DNA of 64,000 bases from Opitutia bacterium (GCA_947478395.1 CANJVR010000009.1:27232-91231), one strand, 5' to 3'; counted from the stretch's first letter, positions 17,761 through 55,987 are shown. Notes: generated by a model from the letters alone, not told the origin. Numbers and translations are program-made.

Positions 17761-17948
17761 TCCGCGAGCCTTCGCCAGATTCGCAAAAAATCAACCCGCG
17801 AGCCACTTGACCCGATTCGGGGCCTTACTTTCATAGCGAAGGGACATTTTGAGCCCGGTGAGAAAACTCATCATTTTTGCGTCAACTCTCATGGGCGCCC
17901 CGCCCGCACTGTGTTAACCTCAGGCTCCCCCCAACCCCGTCCGTGCCC

Positions 17949-20900: not shown

Positions 20901-21569
20901 GCCGGCGGCGGGCCTCCGGCCTTCGTTCGCGGTACCACGGACTGGACGCAAGTCCGCCTGCAGGTCACGACGACAACCGAAGAGCTCACCGTGCTCTGCT
21001 CGGTATCGTTGGGCGCGGCCGACAGCGGCACGACCAAGGGCTCCGCGTGGTTCGATGACGTTACGATCCGGGAGATCGGCCCCTCCGACGATAGCGTCGT
21101 CGAGCCGCTGAACGCCGTGCTGAATCATCTCAACGCCCGCACCGCTGCGCTCGGCAAGCCCGCGACGGGGGCTCCGGCGCTCGACAACACGATGTTCACC
21201 CTCGTGCTTGGCACCACGCCCGACGTGATGAAATACGATCGCACCGAGCTAACGGTGAAAGCCGGCAGCGTCACCCGCCTCGGTTTCCGCAACACCGATC
21301 ACATGCAGCACAACGTCGTCATTCTTCGGCCGGGCACGATGGAAGCCGTCGGTCTGCTCGCGGACAAAATGCTGACGGACCCACAGGGCCTCGCAAAAAA
21401 TTATCTGCCGGCGACGCCCGATGTGTTGTTCAGCACGCCGCTGGTGAACCCAGGTGAAAACTTCGATCTCGTTTTCACCGCGCCTGCCGCGCCGGGCCGT
21501 TATCCGATCATCTGCACCTTCCCCGGCCACTGGCGGATTATGCAGAGCGTGCTCGTCGTGACACCCTGA
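17949..21569 (+). CDS. Secreted PVC-type multidomain protein: ThuA-like, putative dehydrogenase beta-propeller, HEAT repeats, CBM-like, and azurin/auracyanin copper domain
   Basis: GRVFYTAWGHD (ThuA), LFASEPDIKKPIAMSWDERGRLW (propeller), DPDAQVRLAALLAL (HEAT), MQHNVV...ICTFPGHWRIM (type 1 copper ligands). Confidence 0.85.
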   Translation: MNSSVLPSRRHSSIGFIAFVAAFFLAALSAAAAPLKVLFLGDSGHHASAIRLRELAPAMIARGIQLVYTEDVAAALTLENLKRYDAFMIFANIDTITPAQDQALFDYVSQGGGFVPVHCASYCFRNSERYVALVGGQFQRHAAISSFKTRIVAPDHPIMKGWVGVESTGDEPYVHTKQNEKDRTVLEVRDNEPYTWVRNEGKGRVFYTAWGHDERTWMNVGFQDLIERGIRFAAGQKLPDTLSKPTAVTQFEYEEGLKVPYYSNEQGAAARGGNPWPKVQKPLTAAQSMEHIIVPAGFELQLFASEPDIKKPIAMSWDERGRLWIIETVDYPNKLLPAGEAGNDRIVICEDTNHDGKADKFTVFAEGLNIPTSLTFANGGVIVQQMPNTLFLKDTDGDDKADIKEVLITGWGRRDTHAGPSNLQYGPDNWIWGVVGYSGFNGTVGGKPYTFSQGFYRFKSDGSAIEFPRNTNNNTWGLGISETGIVFASTANNNPSTYMPIPARYYEPAGLTAGVLATIADTSRYLPITTKFREVDVFGGYTAGAGHALYTARSYPKEYWNRIAFVTEPTGHLVGEFILDADGANFRSHNPTNLISSDDEWCAPIMAEVGPDGSVWVIDWYNYIIQHNPTPIGFQTGAGAAYENELRDKRHGRIYRVVWKDGKPSPQPNLHNATPEVLVQALTNNNLFWRRHAQRLLVERGRKDVIPALIELTKNQTVDEIGLNAGATHALWTLQGLNALDSSPAALTAATEALKHPSAGVRRNAVTVLPRTAATVNAMIAANLLQDPDAQVRLAALLALSESPEVPAAGQALHATFAAQKVSLDRWSADAAKMAATRQSKGFLAAATPEEIAAARAAENQGTRSLLSSASLMTSGTGLPADWTLAKTAGNVEATRANVSHAGQQSLRLTLDGEGAAGGVSTKIKLKRNYRYELTAWIKTEGLPTLPAGGRAGGGGGRAGGPSIGGASLSAPAPAGARAGAPAGAGGGPPAFVRGTTDWTQVRLQVTTTTEELTVLCSVSLGAADSGTTKGSAWFDDVTIREIGPSDDSVVEPLNAVLNHLNARTAALGKPATGAPALDNTMFTLVLGTTPDVMKYDRTELTVKAGSVTRLGFRNTDHMQHNVVILRPGTMEAVGLLADKMLTDPQGLAKNYLPATPDVLFSTPLVNPGENFDLVFTAPAAPGRYPIICTFPGHWRIMQSVLVVTP

Positions 21570-23965: not shown

Positions 23966-24814
23966 TCAGACCAAGCGGCGCCAAGTCTCGCCCACGAGAT
24001 CACGCATGAGCCGTTCGCACGTGGTCGCACTGTGATCGACCGCGGCGCGTAGTTGCCCTGCGTCGAGGGTGGCCCGGACGCAAACGGCCTCGAGTTCACG
24101 CGCGCTTGCCACACGTTCGATGCGCCGTCCCTCGGGAAAACTCCGCTCGCTGCGGCGGAGTTTCAGCTCATGCAGCAGACGAAAATTAGTCTCGGCGAGT
24201 TCGCGGTGCAGCATGCGCTGGGCGGCGCTCAATTCGCCCCGCGCAATCTTGCGTAGCGTCCACAACTGCTCGCATGCGAACGCGTGCGCCAGGCCCCGCG
24301 CCGCCTCGTCGCTCAAGCGGAGATCCGGCACCTCGGCAACGACCTTCCGGTAAAACGGATCCCACGCTTCGCTGCCGTGCAAAAATCTCCAACCCGGCCG
24401 GATCACGATCGCGAGATCCTGCAGGCCCCGGCGTACTTTGCCTTCCATCCGATGCCGGCCAAGTAAGACCAGCCATTTCAAAAGCCGCATCATGCCCGCC
24501 GACAGGATGACAAAATCGGTTTCCACGCCCGTGAATATGGCGTTCACCTTCGGCACACCCCCGATCCGCGCCACGCGCGAAGCGTAGGCGCGAATTTCGA
24601 AGTTTTTCCCAATTTCCCGGGTCCAATCCGAGTTGGAAAATCGTCCGGCTGCGCTCGTGATGATTTGAAAATCCCAGTCCGATTCCGGATCGGCGCGCCA
24701 GATTTCGTCGGTGGCTTTTCTTTCGCGCGAACCGATCAACACGAGCGCTTTCACGGCCGGCGTGCGCTGGGCCCAGGCAGTCATGGCTTCGCCAAAATCG
24801 ACCGGGATACTCAC
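23966..24814 (-). CDS. Pol-beta-superfamily nucleotidyltransferase, aminoglycoside 6-adenylyltransferase-like
   Basis: VLIGSRER...DPESDWDF (GS plus DxD), third Asp in ETDF, KIARGEL and GRRIE motifs of the ANT(6)-like helical domain. Confidence 0.65.
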   Translation of the reverse strand: MSIPVDFGEAMTAWAQRTPAVKALVLIGSRERKATDEIWRADPESDWDFQIITSAAGRFSNSDWTREIGKNFEIRAYASRVARIGGVPKVNAIFTGVETDFVILSAGMMRLLKWLVLLGRHRMEGKVRRGLQDLAIVIRPGWRFLHGSEAWDPFYRKVVAEVPDLRLSDEAARGLAHAFACEQLWTLRKIARGELSAAQRMLHRELAETNFRLLHELKLRRSERSFPEGRRIERVASARELEAVCVRATLDAGQLRAAVDHSATTCERLMRDLVGETWRRLV

Positions 24815-26592
24815 AGGCTGCGCAGTGAAATTAAAATTTCCGTGCCGTTCATACCCGGACCGGCGTGAATTTCGCCGTGATGCAGACGTAATACCTCCTT
24901 CGCCAAAAATACACCGATACGGCCTTGATTGGGGACCAAGCCGTCAGCCGGCTCCGGCAGGATGCCTTCGAGCTCAAGGTGCTTGCCCTTGATCGACAGC
25001 ATGGCGGTCAATTCATCCCCCTTACCAGCGGACCGCACCTGCAACGTCAGCTCTCCTCCGTTCAGGGCGAATCGGTTTTCAAGGACGGTGGCGATCAGCG
25101 AGCGCAGGGAGAATTCGATCAATTCCCTAGTGACCGAAAGTGGCACCGGGTCAGGGCCGACTTCGACGCGGAACCCAAGCACGGCGCCGACCCCCTGCGC
25201 GAGTTCGCGCAGATCAACGACCGAAGGCTTGGCCTCGTAGAGCGACTGCATGAGGCGGATGTTACCGTTCAGTGCCTCAAGTTTTGCGACGTCGCCCCGC
25301 GCCGCTTCGAGCAGAGGCGGTGGAATATTGTTTCCCGCTCCGGCCTGCCGGAACGTCGTGAGCGAGACCAGCGCGTTAGCCAATTCATGATTGAGAGTAA
25401 GACCGAGTTCGCGGAGCAGGGTCCGGCGATCAGCCCGCTCACGTTGGGCCATATCTTGCCGCTCGAGACTCGCTTCCTCCCAAAACGCCCAGACTCCACC
25501 GGTTTCGACAATCGGACCGGAGCTCGCGCGAAAGGGTTGGCCCGGCTTTGGCGTGACGCGGCAGACGCCTTGGGCAACGCGCACATCCCCAATGAGCGCG
25601 CGCACGACAAGCGGGACCTGCCGTGGTGGATTTTCGTCGGGGCCCAAAATGAGAGTCCCCGGCAGATATTTCGCCCCGAGTGTCGCCTGCTCCGCCAGAT
25701 GGTGGAGACGCGCATATTGCCCACACTTCATCAGAAAATAGCGCAAGAGCCGCGCGTAATGGACCAGACGGGTGCGATCGAACTCGTCGTAGGGCTGGCC
25801 ATCATCGCGGACGCCGAGCGCAATAAGTCCCTGCAAGCGGCCGTTCTCGTGCATGGGTGCAAGCAACCGGGCGCCCCACAGCGCGAGCCGGTTGCGAATG
25901 GCCAGTTCCGCCACGGGATCGGCCGGGCCTTCCCACGACGATCCATCGACCACGATCGGATGAGTTTCAAAGAAAACCACCAAGGGATCATCGAGCCGAA
26001 AAAATGAGGTGCCTCGATCGGCGCGGAACCCGTCGGGCTCACGCAGAAAAAAAACCGCGTGCGACGCCCGCAGTAAATGGCGCGAGGCCCGGCGAAATTC
26101 CGCGATCAGCCGGTCGCGCGTATCCATCGTTTCAACTGCGGCCTCCAGGAAATCCCAAAGCTCAGCGGCGTCCACCAAAGGCTGCACTCGCGCGGTCGGC
26201 CGCACCGGCTCAGCGCGGCGGATCCGATCCGCCATTAGCTCAAGCATCGATTGTTTTTCTGCGACTTCCTCGACCAACGGCAGTAATTCCCGCAAGCGCA
26301 CGGCGCTCTCTTCGTAGGAGAGATAAATTTTGGCGCGCCCTGACAGTTTCGCCTGCTCGTATGGCAGGCTGCGGGGTTCACCGACAAAAATAGTAGCACA
26401 ACGCGCAAGCGCGGGCGGCAGGTCTGCTTCCGCCGCCGCATCCAAAACCACAACGGCTGCAAACCCCGGAGAAGTGCCGCTGGACAGCGCGTGCGGAATC
26501 ATCCTCAGCGCCGTTTTTCCCGGCGCGACCTGTCGTTCCCACGCATCCCCCAAAGCGGAGTCCGACGTCGCGAGAATGATTAAGGTCGGCAT
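24811..26592 (-). CDS. Pseudo-receiver, GAF-like and degenerate histidine-kinase protein
   Basis: LLAPMHENGRLQGLIALGVRDDGQPY (GAF-like), H-box LNHELANAL, no recognisable N or G1 box, GRIGVFLAKEVLRLHHGEI as G2 remnant. Confidence 0.7.
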   Translation of the reverse strand: MPTLIILATSDSALGDAWERQVAPGKTALRMIPHALSSGTSPGFAAVVVLDAAAEADLPPALARCATIFVGEPRSLPYEQAKLSGRAKIYLSYEESAVRLRELLPLVEEVAEKQSMLELMADRIRRAEPVRPTARVQPLVDAAELWDFLEAAVETMDTRDRLIAEFRRASRHLLRASHAVFFLREPDGFRADRGTSFFRLDDPLVVFFETHPIVVDGSSWEGPADPVAELAIRNRLALWGARLLAPMHENGRLQGLIALGVRDDGQPYDEFDRTRLVHYARLLRYFLMKCGQYARLHHLAEQATLGAKYLPGTLILGPDENPPRQVPLVVRALIGDVRVAQGVCRVTPKPGQPFRASSGPIVETGGVWAFWEEASLERQDMAQRERADRRTLLRELGLTLNHELANALVSLTTFRQAGAGNNIPPPLLEAARGDVAKLEALNGNIRLMQSLYEAKPSVVDLRELAQGVGAVLGFRVEVGPDPVPLSVTRELIEFSLRSLIATVLENRFALNGGELTLQVRSAGKGDELTAMLSIKGKHLELEGILPEPADGLVPNQGRIGVFLAKEVLRLHHGEIHAGPGMNGTEILISLRSL

Positions 26593-28583
26593 GGAAAGGT
26601 GACACGAAACGTCGCGCCCTGACCAAAGATCGGCTGGTCGGCCACAATCGTAGCATTAACATTGGCCAGAATGTCCCTACATATCGCCAGTCCAAGGCCA
26701 AAACCAGACGACTTGCTCGACTGAAAAGTTTCGAAAAGCCGCGGCCAAATATCCGGCGCAATCCCGGGGCCGCTGTCCGAAATCACTAACTCAATATTGT
26801 TTCCGACGTTGCGGGAAACGATTTTAATCCAGCGGTCGCCGGGCTGCGTTTCAACGGCTTGGATCGCGTTCAAGCAGAGATTGAGCACCACCTGCTTGAC
26901 CGCGGCAGGATCCGTATAGATGGCATCGGGGGCGGCCAATAAGTCGGAGCGCAATGCGACATTAAAGCCTGCTGCTTTCGCCGCAACGAGATCAAGGCTC
27001 TCGCGTAGCACCGCATGGAGCTCCATCAATTTTGGGGAGTAAACCCTGGGCGCCGCCACATCCAACAATTGTTCCGTCAGCCGATCTATGCGTCTAACTT
27101 CATCGCTGATGACGCGGAAAAATTTATCGCGGAAAGCCTGATCCTGATAGTGCTGCGGCAACAGTTGAACAAAGGTCTTGATCGCAACGAGTGGATTTCT
27201 GATTTCGTGCGCCAAGCTGGCGCCTAGCAGGCCCACGGTAGCAAGTTGAGCAGCGTGCTGCGCCTTGGCGGAGAGGCTGGCCCGCTCGAGCGCGTTTGCT
27301 ATAATCGCGGCAAGTTCCAGGAGCTGCAGAACCTGCGGGTAGGTGAACGGGCGCCTTGACGCAGCTAAACCGACGCCGACCAACGCATTTAGCGTCGGCC
27401 CATCACAGGCGACCAAAATACCCAAATTTTGATCAGAGAGAAATTTCGCAAGAGCGACACGGGCAGGACTAGGCCGTTCGCGAGCCAGCCGCTCAGGTGT
27501 CGCCCAGCGGATCTCCTTCATGAGCTGCGATTCGCTGGAATCCGCGGAAATTTCAATACCACCGCCTTGATAAAAACCTGCAGCGCCGGAAAGCACTATC
27601 GCATGCTCGCTTCGTCCCCAACCCTTCAGGATGGAGAGAAATACACCTACAAGCTCTTCCATCTGAGCCTCCTTGCCAGCGGCAGAAAAAGCTGCCCGCC
27701 GAGCATTAATCACCTGAGGATAAGCTTGAAATGCGCGGTTGAGCCAGGCGTTCAATAAACCAGCAAACCACAGCGTGAGAGCTGTCGTCGCCAGAAATTC
27801 AAGAGGGGGAGGAAAAATTGGACCCAAGCTCACGTTCAGCACCCATGCAAAAGCACAGCTCAGCAATACCAGAACACTCTTTTCCGCGCATACTATCACT
27901 ACTTGCCGTGCATCGAAGATGCGATGGGTGTTGATACCGATTACAGTAAATGCATACAGCACCAAAACAATGATCGGCTGGAGCTGAATGGCAATACGCG
28001 CGTTAAAAACTGCACCGACAGCCATGAGTACTAAAACAGTTACAGCTACCGCACTACCGCCCAGCAAAAGGATTTGAAGCTCCAATCTAGCAGCGCCAGC
28101 CCGCGCTCGCATTTTAACAATGGTATCACTACAAAGACCGGCATAAAGTAACACAAGCCCGCCCATATATGCGTAGTAACCAAAGCCGTAAATTTTATCA
28201 CCTGCAGTAGAATGGGCCGGAACAAACCAGCCAGTAAAGCTGACGATCGCTAACGCCAGCGAACATAAAACCCAAATCCACCCCCTGCATACAATAACTT
28301 TAATCCCCGGTGAACACTCAATAACAGCTTCTTTCAAAAGCCAAAGATGCAACGGGATAAAAGCTCCCGCAGCGGAAGATATTCGCACCCAAATAAGACC
28401 ATTACTGCCTAGAGTTGCAATATAAACACAAGTAATCCACGCACTAACATGCACAGATAATGTGAAAAACCATCGGTTTATTGCACGACGCGGATTAGCC
28501 CAGAAAGCAGCACAGCCGACAAGGAGAACGGCCACGGCAGCCAGCACCGCGGCAAAAGAACTTATTTGCTCATGACCAGACAT
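26580..28583 (-). CDS. Multi-TM (7TM-type) sensor histidine kinase
   Basis: About 8-9 hydrophobic N-terminal segments, LAHEIRNPL, LNLCLNAIQA, DSGPGI, GFGLGL. Confidence 0.92.
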   Translation of the reverse strand: MSGHEQISSFAAVLAAVAVLLVGCAAFWANPRRAINRWFFTLSVHVSAWITCVYIATLGSNGLIWVRISSAAGAFIPLHLWLLKEAVIECSPGIKVIVCRGWIWVLCSLALAIVSFTGWFVPAHSTAGDKIYGFGYYAYMGGLVLLYAGLCSDTIVKMRARAGAARLELQILLLGGSAVAVTVLVLMAVGAVFNARIAIQLQPIIVLVLYAFTVIGINTHRIFDARQVVIVCAEKSVLVLLSCAFAWVLNVSLGPIFPPPLEFLATTALTLWFAGLLNAWLNRAFQAYPQVINARRAAFSAAGKEAQMEELVGVFLSILKGWGRSEHAIVLSGAAGFYQGGGIEISADSSESQLMKEIRWATPERLARERPSPARVALAKFLSDQNLGILVACDGPTLNALVGVGLAASRRPFTYPQVLQLLELAAIIANALERASLSAKAQHAAQLATVGLLGASLAHEIRNPLVAIKTFVQLLPQHYQDQAFRDKFFRVISDEVRRIDRLTEQLLDVAAPRVYSPKLMELHAVLRESLDLVAAKAAGFNVALRSDLLAAPDAIYTDPAAVKQVVLNLCLNAIQAVETQPGDRWIKIVSRNVGNNIELVISDSGPGIAPDIWPRLFETFQSSKSSGFGLGLAICRDILANVNATIVADQPIFGQGATFRVTFPCRP

Positions 28584-29764
28584 GCGTTTGTTCCTGAAAG
28601 ACCGTGGGCATTTACTAGAGTAATCTGAGCCTGAAGTTTCCTGAAGTTTGAGCTCAAATTAAGGGCGCATAGTGGATCAGGAAATTTCCAATTAACCGTT
28701 GGCGGCAGCAATCCATGGCGCAATCCAAGCGCGGAGCATGCTATTTGAATCGCACCGGCAGCGCCGAGAGGATTGCCGATTGCGCCCTTGATTGAGAAAA
28801 CAGGGGTTTCCTCCACTCGTTCTCCCAACAAACGTGTGATCGCGACTGCTTCGGAGGCGTCGACCAAGCGATGCCCAGGACCCCATGCATTTACGGAATC
28901 AACATCAGAGACCTTATACCCACCGTTTGCGACCGCGAAGCGCATTGCGTCCATCATCCCTTCTCCGGGCATCTCAATAGAGTCGGTCGCGAATGCGTAT
29001 CCATCAATAAATGCATAACCAGGGCGCGGACTGGAATCCGGTTCTAACACTAAAACACACGCCCCCTCGCCGATTACTCCAGTAGTTCGCCACAGGTCAA
29101 ATGGTCTGCATTGGCGTTCCGGCCAATCCGAATTACCGGGCGCCAACCCAGCCATCTTCATTTCCAGCATGGGGTGAAAGTACAACGGAGACTCCGTTCC
29201 GCCACAAATGGCTATATCCGTTCGGCCCTGAGCAACCATGTCGGCGCCATGGCCGATTGCATCAAGTCCCGAGCAACATGCACTTTGATACGCCATCGTA
29301 CGAGTGGTGCCGCCGACAAGCTCACTGATAGTCCCAGCAATCGAGCTAACTGACGCAGAAAAAACCGAAGTTGGAAAGCCAATCACGGGCCCTTTTTTAA
29401 CTATCATCTCAACTGTTTTGTTGATAGTCCCAAAATCCATTAGTGACGCCCCAACCAAAATAACAGCATTTGTATTTTTAAGATCTTTTAATCTAAACCC
29501 AGCGTCCTTAGCTGCGAGTATTGCCGCAGCCACGGCTAGTTGCGTATGACGAGGCATACGTTTGTCGTGAATATCGGACACATAGTCATCTAATTTGAAT
29601 GACTTGATTTCTGCACCGACGAATTGGCCCGCTTCTTCATAGAAACGGGTAATCGATCCGACGCGGCTGACAGGCTCTAAGATACCTTTCCAGAAATTTT
29701 CCCTTCCAATTCCTGCTGGGGTAACCGGCCCGATACCCGTGATCTTTACACGTCGTCGCTTCAT
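28562..29764 (-). CDS. FabF-fold beta-ketoacyl synthase-like protein with atypical active site
   Basis: RRVKITGIGPVTPAG, SACCSG, CRPFD, GEGACVLVLE, LPPTVN; NAWG and GNPLGAAG replace the canonical NAHG and GHLLGAAG. Confidence 0.88.
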   Translation of the reverse strand: MKRRRVKITGIGPVTPAGIGRENFWKGILEPVSRVGSITRFYEEAGQFVGAEIKSFKLDDYVSDIHDKRMPRHTQLAVAAAILAAKDAGFRLKDLKNTNAVILVGASLMDFGTINKTVEMIVKKGPVIGFPTSVFSASVSSIAGTISELVGGTTRTMAYQSACCSGLDAIGHGADMVAQGRTDIAICGGTESPLYFHPMLEMKMAGLAPGNSDWPERQCRPFDLWRTTGVIGEGACVLVLEPDSSPRPGYAFIDGYAFATDSIEMPGEGMMDAMRFAVANGGYKVSDVDSVNAWGPGHRLVDASEAVAITRLLGERVEETPVFSIKGAIGNPLGAAGAIQIACSALGLRHGLLPPTVNWKFPDPLCALNLSSNFRKLQAQITLVNAHGLSGTNACLVMSK

Positions 29765-29801
29765 CTAGAGCGAGCGGGGGGTGGGCGCATAACTCACGAT
29801 T

Positions 29802-30953
29802 TTAAGCGCCCGGCTCCCGGGCCACGGGGACCACGATCCGAATCGTCGTCCCTTTCCCGTGTGCGGACGTCAGCTCGAACGTTCCGCCATGCGCACCTAT
29901 TAGGTGCCGGCAGATGCTCAACCCCAACCCGGTTCCACCGGGTTTGCTGCTAAAACCTCCGCGCAATGCCCGCCTTACACGATCCGCGTCCATGCCAGAT
30001 CCGTTGTCCACGATCAGAACTTCAAAATTATTTTCCTGGCGGGAAAAAGTTACCGTTAGAGCTGTCGCGCCCGCTTCCAAAGCATTCTTAAACGTATTTT
30101 GGAAAATCCGCATCAGCTCGTATTTCGAGCCGCGCACAACGGCGTTGGGTAGGCCCTCGTTGCGTATGGCGGGATTCCCGAAAAACAAAACCTGCCTCAC
30201 ATCCTCGGCCACGCTCACCAAATCCACCGGCCCAAATTCTGCAAGTTTCCTAAAGGACGATCTCCAATTCTCCGAGAGATGATGACAGTACTCCGCCGCT
30301 TTTTCGACAATTTCCGCGTAGCCCGTGAGCTTGCTCGCGATCTCCACTTCGTGCGCCGCAATCCTCCGTGCCTCCTCGGCCAGCAACGTCGCATAGCCAA
30401 TCACGACCGTCAGCGGATTGTTCAAATCGTGCACGAGTTCGACCGATGCCCGCGCCTGCCAGATCTGCGGCTCGTTCCGCTCAATTTCTGACTTTAGCGC
30501 CACGTTCATCGCTTGCGCGTCCATCGCCAATTTCTCGTGAAGACGACGCATCCGCGTGGCCTCGACCTGCTGGCGGACCGCGTCGCGTAGTTCGGCTACG
30601 TCCGGCGGCTTGCGCAGGTATTGATTGGCTCCCGCCAGCATCGCCTGCTGGGCCGTCAGCAAAGTACCGTATCCGGTCAGCATGATCACCGAGACCTGCG
30701 AATCGATCTTACGCAGTTCCTCCAATGCGCGGATCCCATCCATCTCTGGCATGCGAATATCCATCACCACCGCGGCATAGGAACGCTGCTTCAGCTTGGC
30801 TAGCGCCTCGCTCGCCCGTTCCGCCGTATCAACCGCAAACTCCGTCGACAACGTGAACGCAATCGACTCACGCGGACCGTATTCGTCGTCGACCACTATA
30901 ACCAGAGGCCGATCTGCCGACACAGCGGGAGCGGTAGATTTTTGCATCAACAT
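29802..30953 (-). CDS. Hybrid response regulator-histidine kinase (REC, HisKA, HATPase)
   Basis: VVDDE, MDIRMPEMDG, LTGYG, KPP; VHDLNNPL, FKNALEA, DNGSGM, GTGLGL. Confidence 0.92.
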   Translation of the reverse strand: MLMQKSTAPAVSADRPLVIVVDDEYGPRESIAFTLSTEFAVDTAERASEALAKLKQRSYAAVVMDIRMPEMDGIRALEELRKIDSQVSVIMLTGYGTLLTAQQAMLAGANQYLRKPPDVAELRDAVRQQVEATRMRRLHEKLAMDAQAMNVALKSEIERNEPQIWQARASVELVHDLNNPLTVVIGYATLLAEEARRIAAHEVEIASKLTGYAEIVEKAAEYCHHLSENWRSSFRKLAEFGPVDLVSVAEDVRQVLFFGNPAIRNEGLPNAVVRGSKYELMRIFQNTFKNALEAGATALTVTFSRQENNFEVLIVDNGSGMDADRVRRALRGGFSSKPGGTGLGLSICRHLIGAHGGTFELTSAHGKGTTIRIVVPVAREPGA

Positions 30954-31095
30954 TCTAAAGAGGCGCCCAAAAGAAACACGCCGAGCGCGAGACGGAGTTG
31001 TACCATGGGTAACGCGGGTTTGCAGTCTGCGTCGCACTCTGTCAAGGAGTGCGTCCCTCCGGTCGCTACGCTGCCACGTCTTCATCTCTCACTCC

Positions 31096-32385
31096 GTGAA
31101 TCTCGCCCTCGTTGTTCTCCTCTCAGCCTCTTCATCCAGCCTGTTCATCTGGCTCGTATTGCGGACCTACTACGCACCCCGCTTTGAACGCCTGCGAGCG
31201 GCGGAGGAGAAGAATACCGGCTTGATTACAGAGTTGTCATCGCTGCGAAGCGCGCGTGACGAAATCGCCCTTCAGCTAACACGCGCCCAGAGCTATCTCG
31301 AGACCGAGCGAAGTGCTCATGAGCGCTTGGTCAGCGAATTCAAAGCGCTTTCGGCGGACGCGCTTCGCGCCAATCGCGCCGATTTTCTCGAGCAAGCCAC
31401 CCAAGCATTCGCCCATCTCCAAACCCAGTCTTTGGGCGACCTCGAAAAGCGACAGCAGTCCATCGATGCTCTCGTCAAGCCCCTGCGCGAATCCCTCGAA
31501 AAAGTTGACGGCAAAATCGCCGACATCGAGAAGGCGCGCGCCACCGCCTATGGTGCGCTCGGCGAACAATTGAAGCATCTCGGCGCGGCTCAACTTCAAC
31601 TCCAAGCGGAAGCCGGGAAACTTTCGACCGCGCTTCGCTCCACTTCGTTTGCTGGCAGTTGGGGCGAACTCCAACTTCGCCGCGTCGTAGAGATGGCGGA
31701 TATGCTTCCTTACTGTGATTTCACGGAGCAAGAAACCGCCGCGGCCGGCGGCTTCCGCGCCGATCTTGTGGTCCGACTCCCCGGCGGACAACGCATCGTG
31801 GTTGACGCCAAGGCCCCACTTGAGGCGTACCGCGCCGCGGTGGATGCGACCGACGCCGGACTTCGCGAAACCCGGCTTGCCGAACATGCCCAGAAAGTGC
31901 GTGGCCATATCGACGCGCTCGGCGCCAAGAATTACTGGGAGCAGTTCCAACCTGCTCCGGAATTCGTCGTTCTCTTCTTACCCGGCGATCACTTTCTCAC
32001 GGCCGCGCTCTCCGCCGATTCGACATTGATGGACCGAGCCCTCAGCCGCCGCGTCTTACTCGCAACACCCACCACTTTAATCGCCCTCCTTAAAGCAGCT
32101 CACTATGGTTGGCGCCAGGAAGCGGTCTCAAAGAATGCCGACGAAATCAGCGCCCTGGGCCGGCAGCTGTATGATCGCGTGGTAGGATTCGCGGAAAACC
32201 TCGAAAAAGTCGGGCGCGGCCTCGACGGCGCGGTTAAAGGTTTCAATCAAGCCGTCGGCTCTTTCGAAGGCACCCTACTACCCGGCGCTCGGAAATTTGC
32301 TGAACTCGGAGCAAAGGGCACAAAAGACCTTATGACACCAAGCGGACTCGAAATCACGCCGAGAGAAATCAATAAACGCAGCTAA
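31096..32385 (+). CDS. rmuC: DNA recombination protein RmuC
   Basis: N-terminal TM and coiled coil, GSWGELQLRRVVEMA, DLVVRLPGG..IVVDAKAP, PEFVVLFLPG, ATPTTLIALL. Confidence 0.93.
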   Translation: MNLALVVLLSASSSSLFIWLVLRTYYAPRFERLRAAEEKNTGLITELSSLRSARDEIALQLTRAQSYLETERSAHERLVSEFKALSADALRANRADFLEQATQAFAHLQTQSLGDLEKRQQSIDALVKPLRESLEKVDGKIADIEKARATAYGALGEQLKHLGAAQLQLQAEAGKLSTALRSTSFAGSWGELQLRRVVEMADMLPYCDFTEQETAAAGGFRADLVVRLPGGQRIVVDAKAPLEAYRAAVDATDAGLRETRLAEHAQKVRGHIDALGAKNYWEQFQPAPEFVVLFLPGDHFLTAALSADSTLMDRALSRRVLLATPTTLIALLKAAHYGWRQEAVSKNADEISALGRQLYDRVVGFAENLEKVGRGLDGAVKGFNQAVGSFEGTLLPGARKFAELGAKGTKDLMTPSGLEITPREINKRS

Positions 32386-32523
32386 CCCATCAACTGCTCC
32401 GTCCTTTTTTTACCTGCGTTTCTCTGCGTTCACCAAACCACGAAACATTTCGAACAGGATTTCGCGCAACGCAGGCCGCGAAAACCGCCGCTACAAACTC
32501 TTTAGAAATCGCGCCCGATCGAA

Positions 32524-32640
32524 TGCATTAACCATATTTCCATTTCCAATAAATTAAATAATTTCTAAAAACAAAACCCCACATATGCCAATACTATATT
32601 AAAAAATAAAATATAGATATATTTACAATAATAAATACCA
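32524..32640. promoter_or_regulatory. Very AT-rich intergenic tract upstream of the second sensor kinase operon
   Basis: 32581-32640 has 9/60 G+C by hand count; contains inverted repeat ctatatt-N9-aatatag. Confidence 0.5.
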
Positions 32641-32721
32641 ACTCCGCGTTCATTGCGAAGAGCGCCTATTAAGGGCCGATCACGCCGCCAGCTCCAACGC
32701 ACCAAGCAAAAGCACAAATCT

Positions 32722-34821
32722 ATGCCCATAATAATTATAGCCATCGCAATTTTCACCATAGCCCTGGGTGCTGTTGTCGCATGGGCAAACCCAGAGCGCT
32801 TGCTTAATCGCGCATTCTGTACCGCAGCCATCATCCAGGCCATCTGGCTCGGATGCGTCTATGCAATGATTCTAGCAGGCTCTCGAGGCAATTTAGACGA
32901 GGTCGCTTTTTGGTTGAGGCTAAATGCAGCATTCTCCGCATTTTTTCCTCTTACACTTTGGTTAACCAAGGAACTTGTCTCAGTACCCAAGGACCACAAA
33001 CGCCTGTTAATGAATTGTATCCCATGGATTCTCGCTGGCGTTCTATTAGCGTCGCTTGCGTACACACCTTCATTTGTTTTTCGAGGAACGAACCCTCAAC
33101 GCTATGAGCGTGGACCTGGCTACTATTTATACGAGCTACTGGCGCTAACCATCTATTGCATTCTAGTAACAGAAACGTTTCGAAAGATGCGAAGCCTAAG
33201 CGGCATGCGACGCATTGAAACTCAATTTCTCGCGATGAACCTAGTAATCGCCGGACTCATCGGAACACTTTTAACCGCAGTAGGCACTTATCTCGATAGC
33301 TCGGCATTAAAGAGACTGAGCATTGCCGCATTTTTCTGCGCTTACGCGGCCTCGGCTTGGGCCATAAGCACACATCGCATATTCGAATTCCGTCAAGTTT
33401 TCACGTCGATTTCGCAACGGATTAGCGTCATAATTATATCTGGTGTTGGTGTAGCCAGCGCAACTTGGTTTCTCGATATTTTCCTACCCCAATATATCGC
33501 TCTTTTCATCAGTACATTATTTTTCGGAGCTTTAGCTTTTTTATTGGATCGCAAGTCGCGCGAGTGGCTCGACCTAAATAGGATGCGTCACCTTGCGAGA
33601 TTTCGGCAGACTTTTATCGAGGTCGCGAAGCGCGAAGCGAGTCCGGACGAATTATGTCTGCGATTCTCAACGTTATTGAGCGCCGAACATGGAACACTCC
33701 ATGCCATGCTGCTGATCGATAAAGGTGTGGGAGTCCCTGAGTCGGCGCTAGAGATCTCCAAAAGCCGTCTTGGCTATTCCGCGCTCTGCCAGATGGGCTG
33801 GGCCACTCCTGAAAGTCTTGAGCGGCGACGGCCCGATCCAGCTTTGGCTGACTTGCAAGATTTCCTCTCTGAAAACAATCTCGGCGTGATTGTTACCAGT
33901 CCCCATGGCAGTGAAAGCCCCGCCTTGGTCGTTGCGTTAGGCAGGAAACCCAACGATTGGCCTTTCACTTACCCCGAGGTCCAGCGGCTTCAGAATATTG
34001 CCGAGCTGATGGATAGCATCCTCGCCCGCTCTCGCCTCGCCATGCAGGCCGCCATGCAGGTAAAACTGGAGCACATGGCGATGATGTCACGCGGCCTGGC
34101 CCACGATCTGAGCAATCTCATTACACCCATCTCGTCGTTTCTGATTTGCACCGATGGTAGATTCCCAGTCGGCACCACTGAAGCAGAGGTTCATTTCGCC
34201 GCGCGGCGCTCGATTCGGGTGATGGGCGAGTATGTCCGGGAGGCACTATTTTTTTCAGAGCGACTTTCTCCAAACTTCGAGCGCGTCGATCCTGGCGCGC
34301 TGTTTCGCGCGGTCCAAGACCTCACCACCGCCCAGGCCACCGAGCAAGGTGTCGTAATTTCGATCTCATCCGATTATCATGACACGTTCCAAGGCGACAC
34401 GATCCTCCTCCACCGCACGCTCGTCAATTTGGTGAATAATGCCCTCGACGCCTCAAAGACCGGTCAAGTTATTGAATTGTCCGCAACCGCTGGGCCCCTC
34501 GGCCGGGTCCTTATCAAAGTGAGCGATTGCGGCTCCGGCGTGCCGCCGGAAAACATTGCGCGGATTTTCGATCCTTATTTTACGACGAAACAGTTTGGCG
34601 CCGAAGTGCGCGGTTTTGGCCTGGGGCTGACTATCTGCCAAAAAATCGTGCATCTGCATCACGGGACCATTTCGGTAAGTAGCAGGCCGAACCGAGGCAC
34701 GACGTTCACCATCGACCTGCCCATTTCACCAGCCCCCAACGGTACTCGGATGACGCAAACCCGCGTTGCCCCCCAGCCGCGCGAGATCGCGATCGCAAGG
34801 CCTCAGCCCATCCTAACATGA
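32722..34821 (+). CDS. Multi-TM (7TM-type) sensor histidine kinase, paralog of 26580..28583
   Basis: Hydrophobic N-terminus, LAHDLSNL, VNLVNNALDA, DCGSGV, FDPYFTTK, GFGLGL; shares WANP, THRIF, WATPE and PFTYP motifs with the first kinase. Confidence 0.92.
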   Translation: MPIIIIAIAIFTIALGAVVAWANPERLLNRAFCTAAIIQAIWLGCVYAMILAGSRGNLDEVAFWLRLNAAFSAFFPLTLWLTKELVSVPKDHKRLLMNCIPWILAGVLLASLAYTPSFVFRGTNPQRYERGPGYYLYELLALTIYCILVTETFRKMRSLSGMRRIETQFLAMNLVIAGLIGTLLTAVGTYLDSSALKRLSIAAFFCAYAASAWAISTHRIFEFRQVFTSISQRISVIIISGVGVASATWFLDIFLPQYIALFISTLFFGALAFLLDRKSREWLDLNRMRHLARFRQTFIEVAKREASPDELCLRFSTLLSAEHGTLHAMLLIDKGVGVPESALEISKSRLGYSALCQMGWATPESLERRRPDPALADLQDFLSENNLGVIVTSPHGSESPALVVALGRKPNDWPFTYPEVQRLQNIAELMDSILARSRLAMQAAMQVKLEHMAMMSRGLAHDLSNLITPISSFLICTDGRFPVGTTEAEVHFAARRSIRVMGEYVREALFFSERLSPNFERVDPGALFRAVQDLTTAQATEQGVVISISSDYHDTFQGDTILLHRTLVNLVNNALDASKTGQVIELSATAGPLGRVLIKVSDCGSGVPPENIARIFDPYFTTKQFGAEVRGFGLGLTICQKIVHLHHGTISVSSRPNRGTTFTIDLPISPAPNGTRMTQTRVAPQPREIAIARPQPILT

Positions 34822-36038
34822 GCCGGCGGATCGATCACCTCTTTACCCCTCGTATCCTTGTGGTGGATGACGAGCAACAAATCCACGCCTCACTACGGCT
34901 ACGATTGGCCAAGGACCACGAGATCGTTTCCTGTCTTGATCCCGCCGCCGCCCTTAGCGTGGTCGCCGAATCCCAGTTCGATCTGTGCCTCGTCGACATC
35001 CATATGCCCGGAATGGATGGACTCACCTTCATCGAGGCCGCCCAAAAAAGCGATCCAGCGCTCGGCTTTGTGGTCCTCAGCGCGTTCGATTCAGCTGAAA
35101 ATCTCCGCCGTACCATCCCGCTTCAGGTTTTTGAATTCGTGACGAAACCGTTCCCGGAACGACATGAATTCGAGGCGCGCATCCCGGGCTGGGTCGACCG
35201 GACCCGCAAACAAAGGCAGGAGCAAAAACTCGCCCTAGACGCCGCCATCCTCAACCGCGAGCTCGAGTTCGCTCGTCAGGAACGCGAAATCGAGCTGGTT
35301 GCCTCGGAAACAGCCCGGGATGCGTTGCTCCAAACGACCAACCTGCTCACCACCGTCAACGCCCACCTCGACACAGCGGTGGCTCTCGTTGCCACAAAAG
35401 CCAAGGCTGACCTAGGTTCCGCCCCGCTGCTGCGGAATTTGGACGTGGCCCGAAAAACCGCCGACGCCGCGGTCACGGTGGCCGAAAAATTCTTCGGCTC
35501 TGCCTACGCCAACCGCGACTCTGCGCCAGCCTTCATCGATTCAGGCCTTCAGCATGCCATCCAGATTGCGCTGCGCATGAATATCGCCGGGATCGAAAGC
35601 AAAGCCGTGGATTTCTCCCCGGCCGATGGACGTTCGTTGGTGCGTGGGCTATCCGGCATCGATTTTCTCCTCATGATGATCCCGCTCGTTAGCCTCGCAT
35701 TGATGGTGACCGAGCCGAACACCACCGTCGGCCTGCGGGCGGAAACGATCGGGCGACTCGACGTTGTTTCAAAAGACTCCCGGTTTCGGAACTATCTTTG
35801 GATCAACCGTCGCAACGCGCTCAGCAGCCAGCCGGGTGTCATGATTTCGCTGGCCGCAACCGCGCCGGCATTCGCCCGTGCGGCGGCGGTAAGTTGGCTG
35901 AACGGGGACGATGGCCCGCTCGCCTCCAATACGCCGCGCGGGCTAGTTGCCGGCCTCCAAAAAAGCCGCGGCCTCCTAGGTCTGAGCATATCACCTCTTT
36001 GCGATCAGTTTCGAGTCTGTCTCGCTCTTCCCGGATAA
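34818..36038 (+). CDS. Response regulator with degenerate kinase-like C-terminal domain
   Basis: ILVVDDE, LVDIHMPGMDG, LSAFD, TKPF; coiled coil; no clear H, N or G boxes; ATGA overlap with the upstream kinase. Confidence 0.8.
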   Translation: MSRRIDHLFTPRILVVDDEQQIHASLRLRLAKDHEIVSCLDPAAALSVVAESQFDLCLVDIHMPGMDGLTFIEAAQKSDPALGFVVLSAFDSAENLRRTIPLQVFEFVTKPFPERHEFEARIPGWVDRTRKQRQEQKLALDAAILNRELEFARQEREIELVASETARDALLQTTNLLTTVNAHLDTAVALVATKAKADLGSAPLLRNLDVARKTADAAVTVAEKFFGSAYANRDSAPAFIDSGLQHAIQIALRMNIAGIESKAVDFSPADGRSLVRGLSGIDFLLMMIPLVSLALMVTEPNTTVGLRAETIGRLDVVSKDSRFRNYLWINRRNALSSQPGVMISLAATAPAFARAAAVSWLNGDDGPLASNTPRGLVAGLQKSRGLLGLSISPLCDQFRVCLALPG

Positions 36039-36065
36039 GCCGAAGCGAAACCCTCACTGATCATC

Positions 36066-36848
36066 GTGCTCACGATCATCTCCAGTGTCGCACGGGAACG
36101 CGCTGCCTTCGCCGCGTTAAGCGACGCCCGCCGATGGGGCTACTCGGAGTGCGACAGCATCCGCGCATTCAAGAGGCTGCTGCAACACACCCGACCTGGA
36201 ATTGTCTTAGTCCGACAGAAACTGAGCGATGGGTACTCGGATGACGTGATCGCGCTCTTGAAGGACAACGGGGCTTCCGCCACGAAAATCGTGGTCCTAC
36301 TTCCCGCCGGTTCACCGTCGGCGCTGGAGGCCCGCCAAATCGCGCTGGGCGCACATTGCGTGCAACGTGATCCCGTTCGCACTGACGTGCTGGTCGAATA
36401 TCTCAACCAATACCGCGTCCATTCGAAACACACCGCGAAAGCCTCTCCGGCGGCAGCGCCCACGTTCCCATTCGCCGGCGCCACCATTCATTTCGTCGAT
36501 CGAAAAATTGAATCAAAAGGAAAATCGGCGAGCCTGACCCCGCGCGAGCTCCAGCTCGCCGGGCTGCTTGGCGAATCCGCGGGGGCCGTGCTTTCATACG
36601 AAACTTTGTATAGCGAAATTCTCAGCCAGAAATTTCGGGGCGACACCAGCAACCTACGCGTGCTGCTCGGCAAGCTCGATGTTTCCGCGCGCCGCGCCGG
36701 CATCGCGCTCCGCAGCTGGGTCGAGGTGATTCCAAAACTGGGCTATCGGTATCGCGCCCCTTCATCCGATTTTCTATCCATTCGCCGCCCTCGTTGCCGT
36801 AACAGTGCTCTCGCGCGAGCTCCCGGAATTCTCCCCGCTAAATCCTAA
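36066..36848 (+). CDS. OmpR-type winged-helix regulator with atypical receiver
   Basis: LTPRELQL, NLRVLLGKL, EVIPKLGYRY; receiver lacks the acidic pocket (IISSVARE) and the phosphoacceptor Asp (VLVRQKLSDG). Confidence 0.8.
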   Translation: MLTIISSVARERAAFAALSDARRWGYSECDSIRAFKRLLQHTRPGIVLVRQKLSDGYSDDVIALLKDNGASATKIVVLLPAGSPSALEARQIALGAHCVQRDPVRTDVLVEYLNQYRVHSKHTAKASPAAAPTFPFAGATIHFVDRKIESKGKSASLTPRELQLAGLLGESAGAVLSYETLYSEILSQKFRGDTSNLRVLLGKLDVSARRAGIALRSWVEVIPKLGYRYRAPSSDFLSIRRPRCRNSALARAPGILPAKS

Positions 36849-55944: not shown

Positions 55945-55987
55945 TGTCCGGAAGAAGCAGCAAACGCGCCGAACGCGCAAATCAGAA

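Follow-up and report, generated by a model that had tools for sequence, protein, structure and literature searches.

The window analysed here is a stretch of 64,000 nucleotides from an Opitutia bacterium (GCA_947478395.1, CANJVR010000009.1:27232-91231). The genome that hosts the module described below is that of a freshwater member of the Opitutaceae. Five tightly coupled genes, all on the minus strand, encode a receiver-bearing histidine kinase (REC-HK), a ketosynthase (KS), a multi-TM kinase, a kinase-like protein and a nucleotidyltransferase. A paralogous set lies on the plus strand, separated from the five-gene run by rmuC, whose RmuC domain was confirmed by Pfam. The features, with the evidence on which each is assigned, are:

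29802..31085, minus strand: REC-histidine kinase (Response_reg, HisKA and HATPase_c; Pfam)
28562..29764, minus strand: orphan FabF-fold ketosynthase, KS (ketoacyl-synt N and C; Pfam)
26580..28583, minus strand: multi-TM sensor histidine kinase, 667 aa (HisKA and HATPase_c; Pfam)
24811..26592, minus strand: kinase-like protein, 593 aa, with REC-fold, GAF and DHp parts (hhalign to outgroup GAF-PAS kinases; predicted fold for the N-terminus)
23966..24814, minus strand: two-domain nucleotidyltransferase, 282 aa (AF2 model and Foldseek)
32653..34821, plus strand: paralogous 7TM-type sensor kinase, 722 aa, without a KS of its own (BLASTP; HATPase_c)
34818..36038, plus strand: receiver-domain protein, 406 aa (Response_reg; Pfam)
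36066..36848, plus strand: OmpR-type DNA-binding protein, 260 aa (Trans_reg_C; Pfam)

The open reading frames and their spacing bear out the single coupled run that had been described from the sequence alone. REC-HK is followed by KS after a gap of 37 nt; KS and the multi-TM kinase overlap by 22 nt, that kinase and the 593-aa protein by 13 nt, and the 593-aa and 282-aa proteins by 4 nt. The KS gene is translationally coupled to the kinase gene. As the sequence-only reading had also held, a search of the window turned up no ACP, acyltransferase or reductase. The three PP-binding (ACP) matches in the genome are all on other contigs, each adjoining another KS paralogue. Nor was a sigma-54-like site found between 23 and 37.5 kb of the window, an exporter or positive-feedback element visible at the locus, or FadL found in the host genome.

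The KS matches both ketosynthase domains (PF00109, E 1.4e-30; PF02801, E 2.2e-19; Pfam) and has the nucleophilic cysteine, Cys163; by sequence, it is a protein of the thiolase-superfamily condensing-enzyme fold. It aligns over its full length with the two-domain thiolase fold of a solved FabF (4ls5; E 2.2e-52), shares 31% identity with the genome's own FabF, and scores 249.3 bits against the fabF family TIGR03150, short of the cut-off of 493.75. In the alignment to 4ls5, Cys163 is kept, and Trp294 and Asn331 occupy the positions of the first and second catalytic histidines, which rules out a Cys-His-His triad of the FabF kind; the gate motif is HGLSG where FabF has GFGG. Three residues are invariant in the 33 Opitutaceae loci (C163, H298 and K326, 33/33 each) and H387 nearly so (32/33). 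Position 294 drifts among W, C and V, with W in 31 of the 33, and position 331 holds N (20 loci), T (nine) or S (four). Comparison across the KS family reveals that where the first histidine is lost the residue four positions on is nearly always histidine, and distant relatives have an active site of the Cys-His-Asn type. Since both canonical histidines are gone from the Opitutaceae KS, decarboxylative condensation may have been lost as well. We infer that the enzyme is catalytically active, and it presumably draws on housekeeping acyl-ACP. In the KS tree the kinase-linked enzymes form one clade (69 rows, SH-aLRT 97), inside which the Opitutaceae sequences are nested (27 rows, support 100), and housekeeping FabF forms another (SH-aLRT 96). 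Identity with housekeeping FabF was rejected on these grounds—the sub-cut-off score, the lost histidines and the separate clade—and on a position away from acpP and fab genes.

Directly downstream of the KS lies the 667-aa sensor kinase, composed of a HisKA_7TM-type domain (residues 1-290), a GAF-equivalent region (about 309-435), HisKA and HATPase. Its distant orthologues also have a PAS domain, whose deletion here is visible in the full-length hhalign alignment. The TM domain aligns with the outgroup HisKA_7TM domain (probability 100, E 1.2e-40), and the whole kinase with its outgroup orthologues (E 4e-105, 654 columns). PF16927 finds no match in the window's kinase at E<=1; it matches 2 of 21 orthologues directly (best E 2.2e-7) and the TM domains of all four outgroup proteins scanned, three of them above the 28.6-bit cut-off. 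PrsK (TIGR02916) was considered as an identity for the kinase and rejected: the score was 75.2 bits against a cut-off of 300, and only profile positions 368-679 were matched. Topology, read from the sequence by eye, suggests about nine TM helices joined by short outer loops, features that would fit sensing within the membrane, and places the most conserved motifs of the 7TM domain (NPxRxxNR, RxxxGxxRxE and HRIFDARQ) on the cytoplasmic face.

Two receiver-bearing proteins flank this pair. REC-HK carries its receiver at the N-terminus, followed by HisKA and HATPase (Response_reg, 1.1e-25; HATPase_c, 1.4e-20; HisKA, 2.4e-6; Pfam); its true start is probably about 45 codons downstream of the ORF start, because orthologues align only from about residue 36-60. 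The 593-aa protein, like the 282-aa protein, has no Pfam or NCBIfam match. It is an end-to-end orthologue of the GAF-PAS kinases of other families (hhalign 99.9%, 583 columns). Its N-terminal 140 aa are, by predicted structure, a response-regulator receiver fold (pLDDT 91.2): the strands and helices follow the receiver order, and the top Foldseek matches are the receivers of DctD (1l5y), WspR, LqsR and FrzS. Each of D11, D51 and S75 recurs in 90% or more of the 55 sequences compared. Aligned with active outgroup kinases, it keeps the H-box histidine and has lost the G1 and G2 boxes of the ATP-binding domain, IKGKHLE and GRIGVFL facing the outgroup DNGPGI and GMGLGL. On this alignment, it is a kinase-like phosphorelay component with a degenerate ATP-binding domain. 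The original label, 'GAF pseudokinase', is thus too narrow for this protein, with its REC-fold N-terminus and GAF-PAS kinase orthology.

For the 282-aa protein, the profile alone reaches only E 5e-4 to 4e-3 against the PDB, covering just the N-terminal motif. The AF2 model (pLDDT 91.3) matches LinB best (3jyy; Foldseek E 1.1e-7, TM 0.65/0.68) and ANT(6)-Ib next (8vxb; TM 0.59), a whole-length, two-domain agreement at 12-16% identity. Twenty sequences share the invariant residues G28-S29, D46-x-D48 and D100, that is, GS...DxD and a third Asp. By modelled fold, this is a nucleotidyltransferase of the LinB/ANT(6) small-molecule type, which agrees with the assignment first made from the sequence. 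The gene accompanies an intact KS in 33/33 Opitutaceae loci, is absent from the 4/4 in which the KS is lost or decayed, and has so far been seen only in Opitutaceae loci of the module.

Across rmuC, the 722-aa kinase is, as proposed, a full-length paralogue of the 667-aa kinase (BLASTP, 28% over 685 aa, E 5e-67), with HATPase_c at E 4.9e-27 (Pfam) and 73 bits against LuxQ (NCBIfam), whose cut-off is 1200. The 406-aa protein had been called a REC-pseudokinase. Its receiver is real (Response_reg, E 1.3e-18), and only this part aligns to REC-HK; the supposed pseudokinase part, 280 aa at the C-terminus, received no assignment in the Atlas search. 'Atypical OmpR regulator' suits the 260-aa protein well, with Trans_reg_C (E 1.3e-6), NCBIfam scores for KdpE and VanR that are weak and fall far short of the cut-offs, and an N-terminal half in which Pfam finds no receiver. 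The sequence-only reading had counted this set as part of the system. It lies outside the conserved core, with orthologues of the 406-aa REC protein in 4 of 61 Opitutaceae genomes, and is a narrow, lineage-specific addition.

What is conserved is the KS followed directly by a HisKA_7TM-type kinase. This order occurs in all 33 full Opitutaceae loci. It was seen in 16/16 own-family genomes of the phylum sample, in 13 further own-family loci, and in those of seven genome-contig matches that have enough sequence. Among the loci examined in the phylum's other families, 24 of 26 show it as well, the remaining two being ordinary FabF, and so does a metagenome contig (L111) with a KS of basal type. 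In every examined locus of the kinase-linked KS clade, the KS precedes an orthologous 7TM kinase. Almost all of the 80 KS loci fetched by generic patterns carry the FabF motif AHGTST, and the layout is absent from all that do. A REC-GAF kinase and a REC-kinase stand beside the pair both in Opitutaceae and in other families, REC-HK orthologues being present at all full Opitutaceae loci and at 23 of the 24 kinase-linked loci elsewhere. Neighbours at the other-family loci include a FadL outer-membrane channel (21/24), a sigma-54 regulator (10/24), an O-methyltransferase beside the KS (two loci) and a B12 radical-SAM enzyme (one); neither ACP nor PKS genes turned up next to the KS homologues examined there, and no other lipid-synthesis genes were seen at 24/24 loci. 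The homologues, then, do not lie away from kinases or within fatty-acid or polyketide synthase clusters; they form a clade of their own with the 7TM kinase adjoining. Synteny within one family is partly inherited, and it is the other families that supply independent weight. The module is conserved across the phylum, and its arrangement goes far beyond chance. Co-phylogeny, which had been put forward as a check, gave correlated KS and 7TM-domain distances (r 0.65, or 0.42 as a partial correlation controlling for the kinase core; reverse partial 0.07). Shared descent confounds this correlation, as does the higher rate of change in the 7TM domain. A literature search found no description of such a KS/7TM-kinase system, in keeping with the initial impression that the pairing was new.

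One Opitutaceae clade of four genera (support 100) keeps the three kinases and has lost the enzymes: the nucleotidyltransferase is absent, and the KS is either decayed, with the Cys lost and 24 aa deleted, or missing. The loss of the two is a single change on the tree. The remaining kinases have no internal stops, apart from one in the alignment of a single REC-HK (L093). Among columns conserved in at least 30 of the 33 KS-bearing loci, 6 of the 20 that lie in the 7TM domain have changed in at least three of the four loci of this clade, compared with 1/15 for the GAF region and 0/73 for the kinase core. The relaxed sites include the outer-loop motif P122, S125; the cytoplasmic-face motifs of the 7TM domain are kept. 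Both the co-loss of KS and nucleotidyltransferase and the relaxation of the 7TM domain rest on one evolutionary event.

Most likely, what the kinases read is a lipid-like cue that the KS either makes or processes. The more particular proposal, that the 7TM kinase receives a lipid-like ligand from the KS and tailoring enzymes, we hold at about an even chance. Of what the sequence-only reading had claimed, the functional link between KS and kinase signalling stands; a KS that acts as a condensing signal synthase is unproven, both canonical histidines being replaced. The module would be the Opitutaceae form of a phylum-wide signalling module, in which a diverged, dedicated FabF-fold KS supplies a hydrophobic, fatty-acyl-derived ligand. 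It may work with the LinB/ANT(6)-like nucleotidyltransferase in Opitutaceae; elsewhere an O-methyltransferase or a B12 radical-SAM enzyme is among its neighbours. The HisKA_7TM domain of the kinase directly downstream would read the ligand inside the membrane, and this primary kinase, which alone among the three core kinases lacks a receiver domain, would control two receiver-bearing secondary kinases, REC-HK and the REC-GAF kinase-like protein. The output regulator would be encoded elsewhere; many distant relatives would use a sigma-54 activator for this, which probably drives a FadL channel operon. We infer both that the KS product is the ligand and that phosphotransfer runs in this order. 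Cell-to-cell quorum sensing, as opposed to a cue acting on the producer alone, is unproven.

The KS-like protein might instead be the sensor itself: acylated at Cys163 by acyl-ACP or acyl-CoA without condensing, as happens in non-elongating ketosynthases, it would report the fatty-acyl pool to the kinases by contact, and the module would then be a sensor of lipid status, whether of the acyl pool or of imported fatty acids. The retention of Cys in 33/33 loci while the histidine positions drift is what one expects if formation of the acyl-enzyme suffices, and the translational coupling of the KS and kinase genes, the kept cytoplasmic motifs that are the best conserved of the 7TM domain, and FadL at most distant loci point the same way. 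However, the three kinases persist intact in the clade without KS, so they do not require the KS as a subunit, and the sites relaxed there include P122 and S125 of the outer loop and not the cytoplasmic motifs. A small-molecule nucleotidyltransferase tied to the KS and lost with it, and variable tailoring enzymes beside the KS elsewhere, also fit a product better. We consider this reading unlikely.

A role for the KS as an effector of membrane homeostasis seems to us more doubtful. Here the 7TM kinase would sense a membrane property or envelope stress, the KS and nucleotidyltransferase would alter a lipid, and KS and sensor would be coupled only by indirect feedback through membrane composition. 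An intramembrane type of sensor with minimal outer loops (topology by eye), a KS from the fatty-acid synthase superfamily, a clade that keeps the module without KS, and FadL and sigma-54 control in relatives, suggestive of lipid uptake or remodelling, would all agree with this. Yet the KS shares an operon with its supposed regulators rather than having a separate regulated promoter, its active site is remodelled away from FabF chemistry, the distant loci carry no lipid-synthesis gene besides it, and it is not obvious what an enzyme of the LinB/ANT(6) type would do in bulk lipid synthesis. An inherited neighbourhood without functional link, the KS being a spare fatty-acid enzyme among kinase genes, is very improbable and already disfavoured: synteny within the family from an ABC-ATPase gene to rmuC means that part of the conservation is shared descent, but the adjacency spans many families and classes with differing flanking genes, and the linkage defines the KS clade and is lacking at ordinary FabF loci.

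If the KS supplies a ligand to the 7TM kinase, the module invites comparison with several known systems, though Pfam and NCBIfam gave it no homology to their synthase or receptor families: the matches were to KS domains and generic kinase cores, all NCBIfam kinase scores being far below cut-off. The Ralstonia quorum-sensing system phcBSR(Q) encodes in one operon the methyltransferase PhcB, a sensor kinase and a receiver-plus-kinase-like protein, and uses a fatty-acid-derived signal. The likeness is that one operon unites a lipid-modifying enzyme, a membrane sensor kinase and a receiver/kinase-like protein, and two distant loci of the module even carry an O-methyltransferase beside the KS. The present module has a FabF-fold KS instead of PhcB, and a putative receptor of the HisKA_7TM type. 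In CqsA/CqsS (Vibrio), LqsA/LqsS (Legionella) and LuxM/LuxN, the synthase adjoins a multi-TM kinase whose ligand, a hydrophobic, acyl-derived autoinducer, is bound in the membrane and whose output is a phosphorelay. Unlike the thiolase-fold KS, CqsA and LqsA belong to the PLP-dependent acyl-CoA transferases. As in such synthase–receptor pairs, the enzyme gene is conserved beside a multi-TM kinase gene (33 Opitutaceae loci, 24/26 distant loci), with three kinases in place of one hybrid kinase and an Hpt protein. RpfF/RpfC of the Xanthomonas DSF system likewise pairs an enzyme from fatty-acid metabolism with a multi-TM kinase encoded beside it; RpfF acts on acyl-ACP, binds the receptor and has a crotonase fold rather than that of FabF, and the output is an HD-GYP regulator.

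Among the enzymes, LinB/Lnu(B) and ANT(6) share the whole-length fold and the GS...DxD and third-Asp motifs of the 282-aa protein, which differs in belonging to a signalling operon instead of a resistance element and in its want of a Pfam match. Photorhabdus PpyS and DarB, FabH-like proteins of the KAS III fold, make signal lipids from acyl thioesters that are sensed by cytoplasmic LuxR solos. Each is a single thiolase-superfamily enzyme without a full PKS, and distant KS relatives share their Cys-His-Asn type of active site; the KS here has the KAS I/II fold and a membrane kinase as partner. FabF/KAS II (TIGR03150, 4ls5) has in common with the KS the two-domain thiolase fold, the nucleophilic Cys and a Lys, and differs in both catalytic histidines, the gate, the clade and the proximity of acpP. 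The non-elongating KS0 domains of trans-AT polyketide synthases accept an acyl chain without decarboxylation or condensation and pass it to a downstream ACP. They, too, have lost the HGTGT-equivalent histidine and kept the Cys; they are embedded in megasynthases, whereas the KS here stands alone, with the conserved replacement histidines H298 and H387.

Across many families of Verrucomicrobiota there is a dedicated lineage of ketosynthases (KS) whose sole constant partners are a HisKA_7TM kinase and two receiver-bearing kinases. In the window this lineage is represented by an orphan enzyme of the FabF fold, encoded within a run of five genes whose positions and spacing are exactly those of the sequence-only reading:

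29802-31085, minus strand: REC-HK, a receiver and histidine kinase (Pfam Response_reg, HisKA and HATPase_c)
28562-29764, minus strand: KS (Pfam ketoacyl-synt N and C), after a 37-nt gap from REC-HK
26580-28583, minus strand: 667-aa multi-TM (7TM) kinase (Pfam HisKA and HATPase_c), overlapping by 22 nt
24811-26592, minus strand: 593-aa REC-GAF kinase-like protein, overlapping by 13 nt
23966-24814, minus strand: 282-aa nucleotidyltransferase, overlapping by 4 nt

The gene for RmuC (Pfam) lies divergently upstream of this cluster. Beyond it are a second multi-TM kinase, paralogous to the first along its full length (28% identity over 685 aa, E 5e-67), a 406-aa receiver protein and a regulator. 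The receiver protein had been called a ‘REC-pseudokinase’; its REC part is recognised, and its C-terminal 280 aa drew no assignment from an Atlas search. The regulator, described as an atypical OmpR protein, does have an OmpR-type DNA-binding domain and no receiver recognisable by Pfam. The remaining genes of the window have carbohydrate, purine and housekeeping functions, and no ACP, acyltransferase or reductase was found among those annotated, as had also been said. The genome amounts to 3.3 Mb in nine contigs, with the window at C9:27232-91231, and the public runs that hold the stretch are all freshwater, lake or biofilm metagenome DNA, with no RNA run listed.

Several other features of the window are recorded here for completeness. 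The longest rmuC ORF (30796-32385, plus strand, TTG start) overlaps the longest REC-HK ORF (29802-31085, minus strand) by ~290 nt. Alignments with orthologues begin only at residue ~74-174 in RmuC and ~36-60 in REC-HK, and on this evidence both genes probably start further inside their ORFs, with a short divergent promoter region between them. G+C content is 0.50-0.57 at 26000-34000, against ~0.62 elsewhere, a dip that covers KS and both 7TM-kinase genes. Recent horizontal transfer was set aside as its cause, being unlikely because the locus is syntenic across the family, Opitutaceae; the codon content of membrane domains may contribute. At 17877-21569 (plus strand) is a gene for a 1230-aa protein that combines ThuA, DUF7133, HEAT repeats and a plastocyanin/azurin-type copper domain. 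What looks like a purine-catabolism cluster occupies 52138-62093 (minus strand), where a fused 1280-aa xanthine-dehydrogenase-type molybdoenzyme, with 2Fe-2S, FAD and MoCo domains in a single chain, is encoded near an OHCU decarboxylase, an M20 peptidase and malate synthase.

Solved FabF structures align with KS along its whole length (4ls5, E 2.2e-52). The score of KS with the fabF model is 249 bits, where the cut-off is 493.75, and its identity to the best FabF candidate of its own genome is 31%. The alignment to 4ls5 shows the nucleophilic Cys retained (SACCSG), the first catalytic His replaced by Trp (NAWGPGH versus NAHGTST) and the second by Asn (GNPLGAAG versus GHLLGAAG). Among 33 Opitutaceae orthologues, C163, H298 and K326 are invariant and H387 is present in 32; position 294 is W in 31, C in one and V in one, and position 331 is N in 20, T in nine and S in four. 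The nucleophile is therefore under strict selection, and both residues of classical decarboxylation have been replaced. Where the first His is lost, another His occurs four residues later in all family members, in the distant loci L067/L071 and in the KS representatives P0139, P0147 and P0163. This does not hold for P0143, P0151 or L085/L087, and L085/L087 have kept the second-site His instead. This pattern suggests compensation in the alignments, not decay. The genome has three ACP genes, all on contigs other than the window's; the best FabF candidate and two other KS paralogues each adjoin one of them. The paralogues beside an ACP (PP-binding) gene are at C2:866223-867798, C2:338084-339571 and C4:73206-75410, and no ACP was matched near a fourth, at C5:100661-101956. 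Two or more of these other paralogues resemble small KS-ACP systems in their own right.

A sample of 401 genomes from the phylum was searched for KS orthologues at E<=1e-100. Of 35 other genomes of the family, 16 have one, and of 365 genomes from other families none does. KS is followed directly by the 7TM kinase in all 16. The 593-aa gene is adjacent to the kinase in 15, with a 4-kb insert in the other, and REC-HK and the 282-aa gene are inside the cluster in all 16, though one group of loci has them in a rearranged order. The cluster is flanked by an ABC-ATPase gene and by rmuC. Where contigs allow, the same order is found in seven loci from genome contigs and in another 13 from the family. 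Of 61 family genomes taken one per genus, 21 have KS and 26 the 593-aa protein, with 20 having the two together. The sole KS-only case is a 4-kb contig, and the six 593-aa-only cases comprise two at contig ends and four from a lineage, discussed below, in which KS is missing or decayed. Public proteins at 60-83% identity to KS number more than 120, nearly all of exactly 400 aa, and the names on close homologues are Verrucomicrobia, Opitutae and Opitutaceae. In an exhaustive profile-free search, bit scores drop from 304, for the last family-like representative, to 252 or less. The representatives that come next have Cys, AHGP[SG][DH] and GNPL—a Cys-His-Asn arrangement on the FabF fold—and, where named, belong to Kiritimatiellia, including Pontiella.

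A tree of 76 KS rows (IQ-TREE quick search, LG+C20 PMSF, SH-aLRT support) places housekeeping FabF in one clade (96) and all kinase-linked KS in another, of 69 rows (97). The Opitutaceae enzymes (27 rows, 100) are nested within the radiation of the distant kinase-linked KS. Within the Opitutaceae clade falls the KS of L009 (JANRKO010000004.1), a 4.9-kb contig binned in a Polyangiaceae MAG that carries REC-HK, KS and 7TM-kinase genes of Opitutaceae type at ~61-63% identity; this contig is probably mis-binned.

The same association recurs outside the family. A distant KS representative, P0128, used as query (E<=1e-90) matched 48 places in 46 of the 401 genomes, none of them in Opitutaceae, and 26 of the 48 were examined. 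At 24 of these 26, KS is followed at once by a ~835-aa kinase (HisKA_7TM, GAF, PAS, HisKA and HATPase by Pfam, in four loci), and next, in all 22 loci uncut by a contig end, by a ~660-aa kinase with GAF, PAS, HisKA and HATPase domains. REC-HK is present in 23 of the 24 kinase-linked loci and a FadL/Toluene_X outer-membrane channel in 21, both divergently upstream of KS in most. A sigma-54 response regulator is full-length in 10 of the 24 (two more have a receiver-sized match only), and an O-methyltransferase occurs in two. The two kinase-free loci have the FabF motifs AHATST or AHGTST and GH. When KS was searched across genomes and its neighbours tabulated, the check that the sequence-only reading proposed, sensor kinases proved adjacent to the enzyme in the kinase-linked clade.

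A metagenome scan with an alignment of basal KS representatives used patterns too generic to be selective, and nearly all of its 80 loci were ordinary FabF. It returned one contig, L111, with a KS of the basal type (AHAPSD) and the complete module set; ~70 AHGTST-type FabF loci from the same scan lack this layout and serve as a rough negative control. On another metagenome contig (L141, 3921-8053), the N-terminus of a HisKA_7TM-like kinase lies ~1.5 kb downstream of an ordinary-looking FabF (AHGTST). Single distant loci show further neighbours: a B12-binding radical-SAM gene directly upstream of the kinase-linked KS (L068, 6112-7581); a protein with a lantibiotic-dehydratase N-terminal match near the module (L067, 3995-6430); and FadL in two tblastn pieces in different frames (L080, 10814-12024), which may reflect a frameshift or assembly error. 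Sites with at least nine of 11 positions of the sigma-54 -24/-12 consensus number nine in the 24 windows of 480 bp upstream of KS, against ~1.7 predicted from the whole-locus rate (60 hits in 417,550 bp). Six face fadL at 60-160 bp, two face KS and one is inside fadL. At the same threshold there is no such site at 23-37.5 kb of the window, and no FadL match in the window's genome.

The kinases of the two groups of loci correspond. The membrane domain of the 7TM kinase matches the distant HisKA_7TM domain with probability 100 (E 1.2e-40, 280 columns), and the full kinases match at E 4e-105 over 654 columns, the PAS domain being cleanly deleted in the Opitutaceae form. Over 583 columns (99.9%) the 593-aa protein aligns end-to-end with its GAF-PAS counterparts in the distant loci. 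It had been read as a GAF pseudokinase, and it has indeed lost the G1 and G2 nucleotide-binding boxes, with the H-box His kept; the reading missed its first 140 residues, which adopt a receiver fold (pLDDT 91.2; top matches the receivers of DctD, WspR, LqsR and FrzS) in which D11, D51 and S75 are nearly invariant among 55 family and distant sequences. From these domain results, the core therefore consists of one receiver-less 7TM kinase and two receiver-bearing kinase-type proteins. Membership of PrsK was considered and rejected. A complex prediction for KS with the cytoplasmic part of the 7TM kinase (295-667) scored 0.00, which is evidence neither way.

The 282-aa protein comprises a nucleotidyltransferase domain and a helical domain (predicted fold, pLDDT 91.3) and matches LinB (3jyy, TM 0.65/0.68) and ANT(6)-Ib (8vxb) over its whole length; G28-S29, D46-x-D48 and D100 are invariant in 20 sequences. 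Its gene is present in all 33 loci with intact KS by tblastn and profile search, the latter recovering two genes that tblastn had missed or that were cut. L099, by tblastn a KS locus without the nucleotidyltransferase, was found to have it by profile search. The protein was not found in the distant loci. In three genera of the family the genes for REC-HK, 7TM kinase and REC-GAF protein stand side by side at the same chromosomal position, and both KS and the nucleotidyltransferase are absent. A fourth genus, likewise lacking the nucleotidyltransferase, retains KS only in decayed form, at 38% identity, with a 24-aa deletion and without the active-site Cys. A tree built from the two kinases concatenated unites the four as one clade (100) in which the decayed-KS genome branches first, so the loss is a single history. 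In their kinases the catalytic His is retained, as are the motifs on the cytoplasmic face of the membrane domain, and the one internal stop is in the REC-HK alignment of the decayed-KS locus. The 7TM domain has 20 columns that are conserved in 30 or more of the 33 KS-bearing loci, and six of them (W28, L50, P122, S125, Y147 and F223) have changed in three or all of the four members; the corresponding figures are one of 15 columns for the GAF-equivalent region and none of 73 for the kinase core. For this one lineage, the shift of constraint is suggestive of a link between the 7TM domain and KS. Co-phylogeny with the transmembrane domain, which the sequence-only reading proposed to test, was approached through distances: those that best match the KS distances across the 33 loci with the enzyme are those of the 7TM domain (r 0.65; partial correlation given the kinase core 0.42, reverse partial 0.07), a relation suggestive of coupling and confounded by shared descent and unequal rates.

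The reading we favour, at about even odds, is that the 7TM domain receives a lipid-like ligand from KS. Several features of KS speak for it: the nucleophile is invariant, the protein as a whole is strongly conserved, and the enzyme is an orphan. Its neighbours do too, namely variable small-molecule tailoring enzymes and, in relatives, a FadL channel, as do the intramembrane type of the sensor, the disappearance of the nucleotidyltransferase along with KS and the constraint shift that followed in the 7TM domain. The main argument for two other readings is that Opitutaceae KS have lost both canonical His residues. KS might itself be a sensor that works by acylation, which we think improbable; that it is an effector of membrane remodelling, from the same loss, seems to us less probable still.

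Should KS indeed make a ligand, quorum sensing proper, with release of the product and density dependence, would be a minority sub-case, which we rate as rather unlikely. Kinase-linked KS, of Cys-His-Asn type and remodelled further in Opitutaceae, would then be autoinducer synthases of undescribed lipid-based cell-to-cell systems, widespread in Verrucomicrobiota including Kiritimatiellia. The HisKA_7TM kinases would be the receptors, FadL the outer-membrane entry route, and regulators of the sigma-54 or another type would stand at the end of the three-kinase relay. Lineage-specific ‘dialects’ of the signal would come from the variable tailoring enzymes, such as nucleotidyltransferase, O-methyltransferase and radical SAM, and lineages without KS would be listeners only.

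Verrucomicrobiota are abundant in freshwater, soil, ocean and gut, and we know of no chemical signalling system characterised in them. If the ligand reading is true, a KAS I/II-fold ketosynthase acting alone would be a new class of signal-synthesis enzyme, the uncharacterised HisKA_7TM sensor domain would gain a ligand class, and the condensing enzyme would be a natural case of active-site migration. Even under rival readings (acyl-pool sensor, lipid homeostasis), lipid metabolism would be wired to two-component signalling in a new way. A comparative set of 33 full loci from the family, 24 from more distant genomes and one KS-less, kinase-keeping clade makes the question directly testable. A full-text literature search (ketosynthase with histidine kinase, FadL, sigma-54 or quorum sensing) found no such system described, consistent with the earlier statement that the pairing was not known to have been described. 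The HisKA_7TM papers that turned up are censuses of archaeal two-component systems, and FadL is treated with long-chain acyl-homoserine lactones (PMC9938287, PMC5977203). The ketosynthase heterodimer of an anammox preprint (10.64898/2026.05.19.726425) is a KS/CLF-like pair, not a kinase-linked KS.
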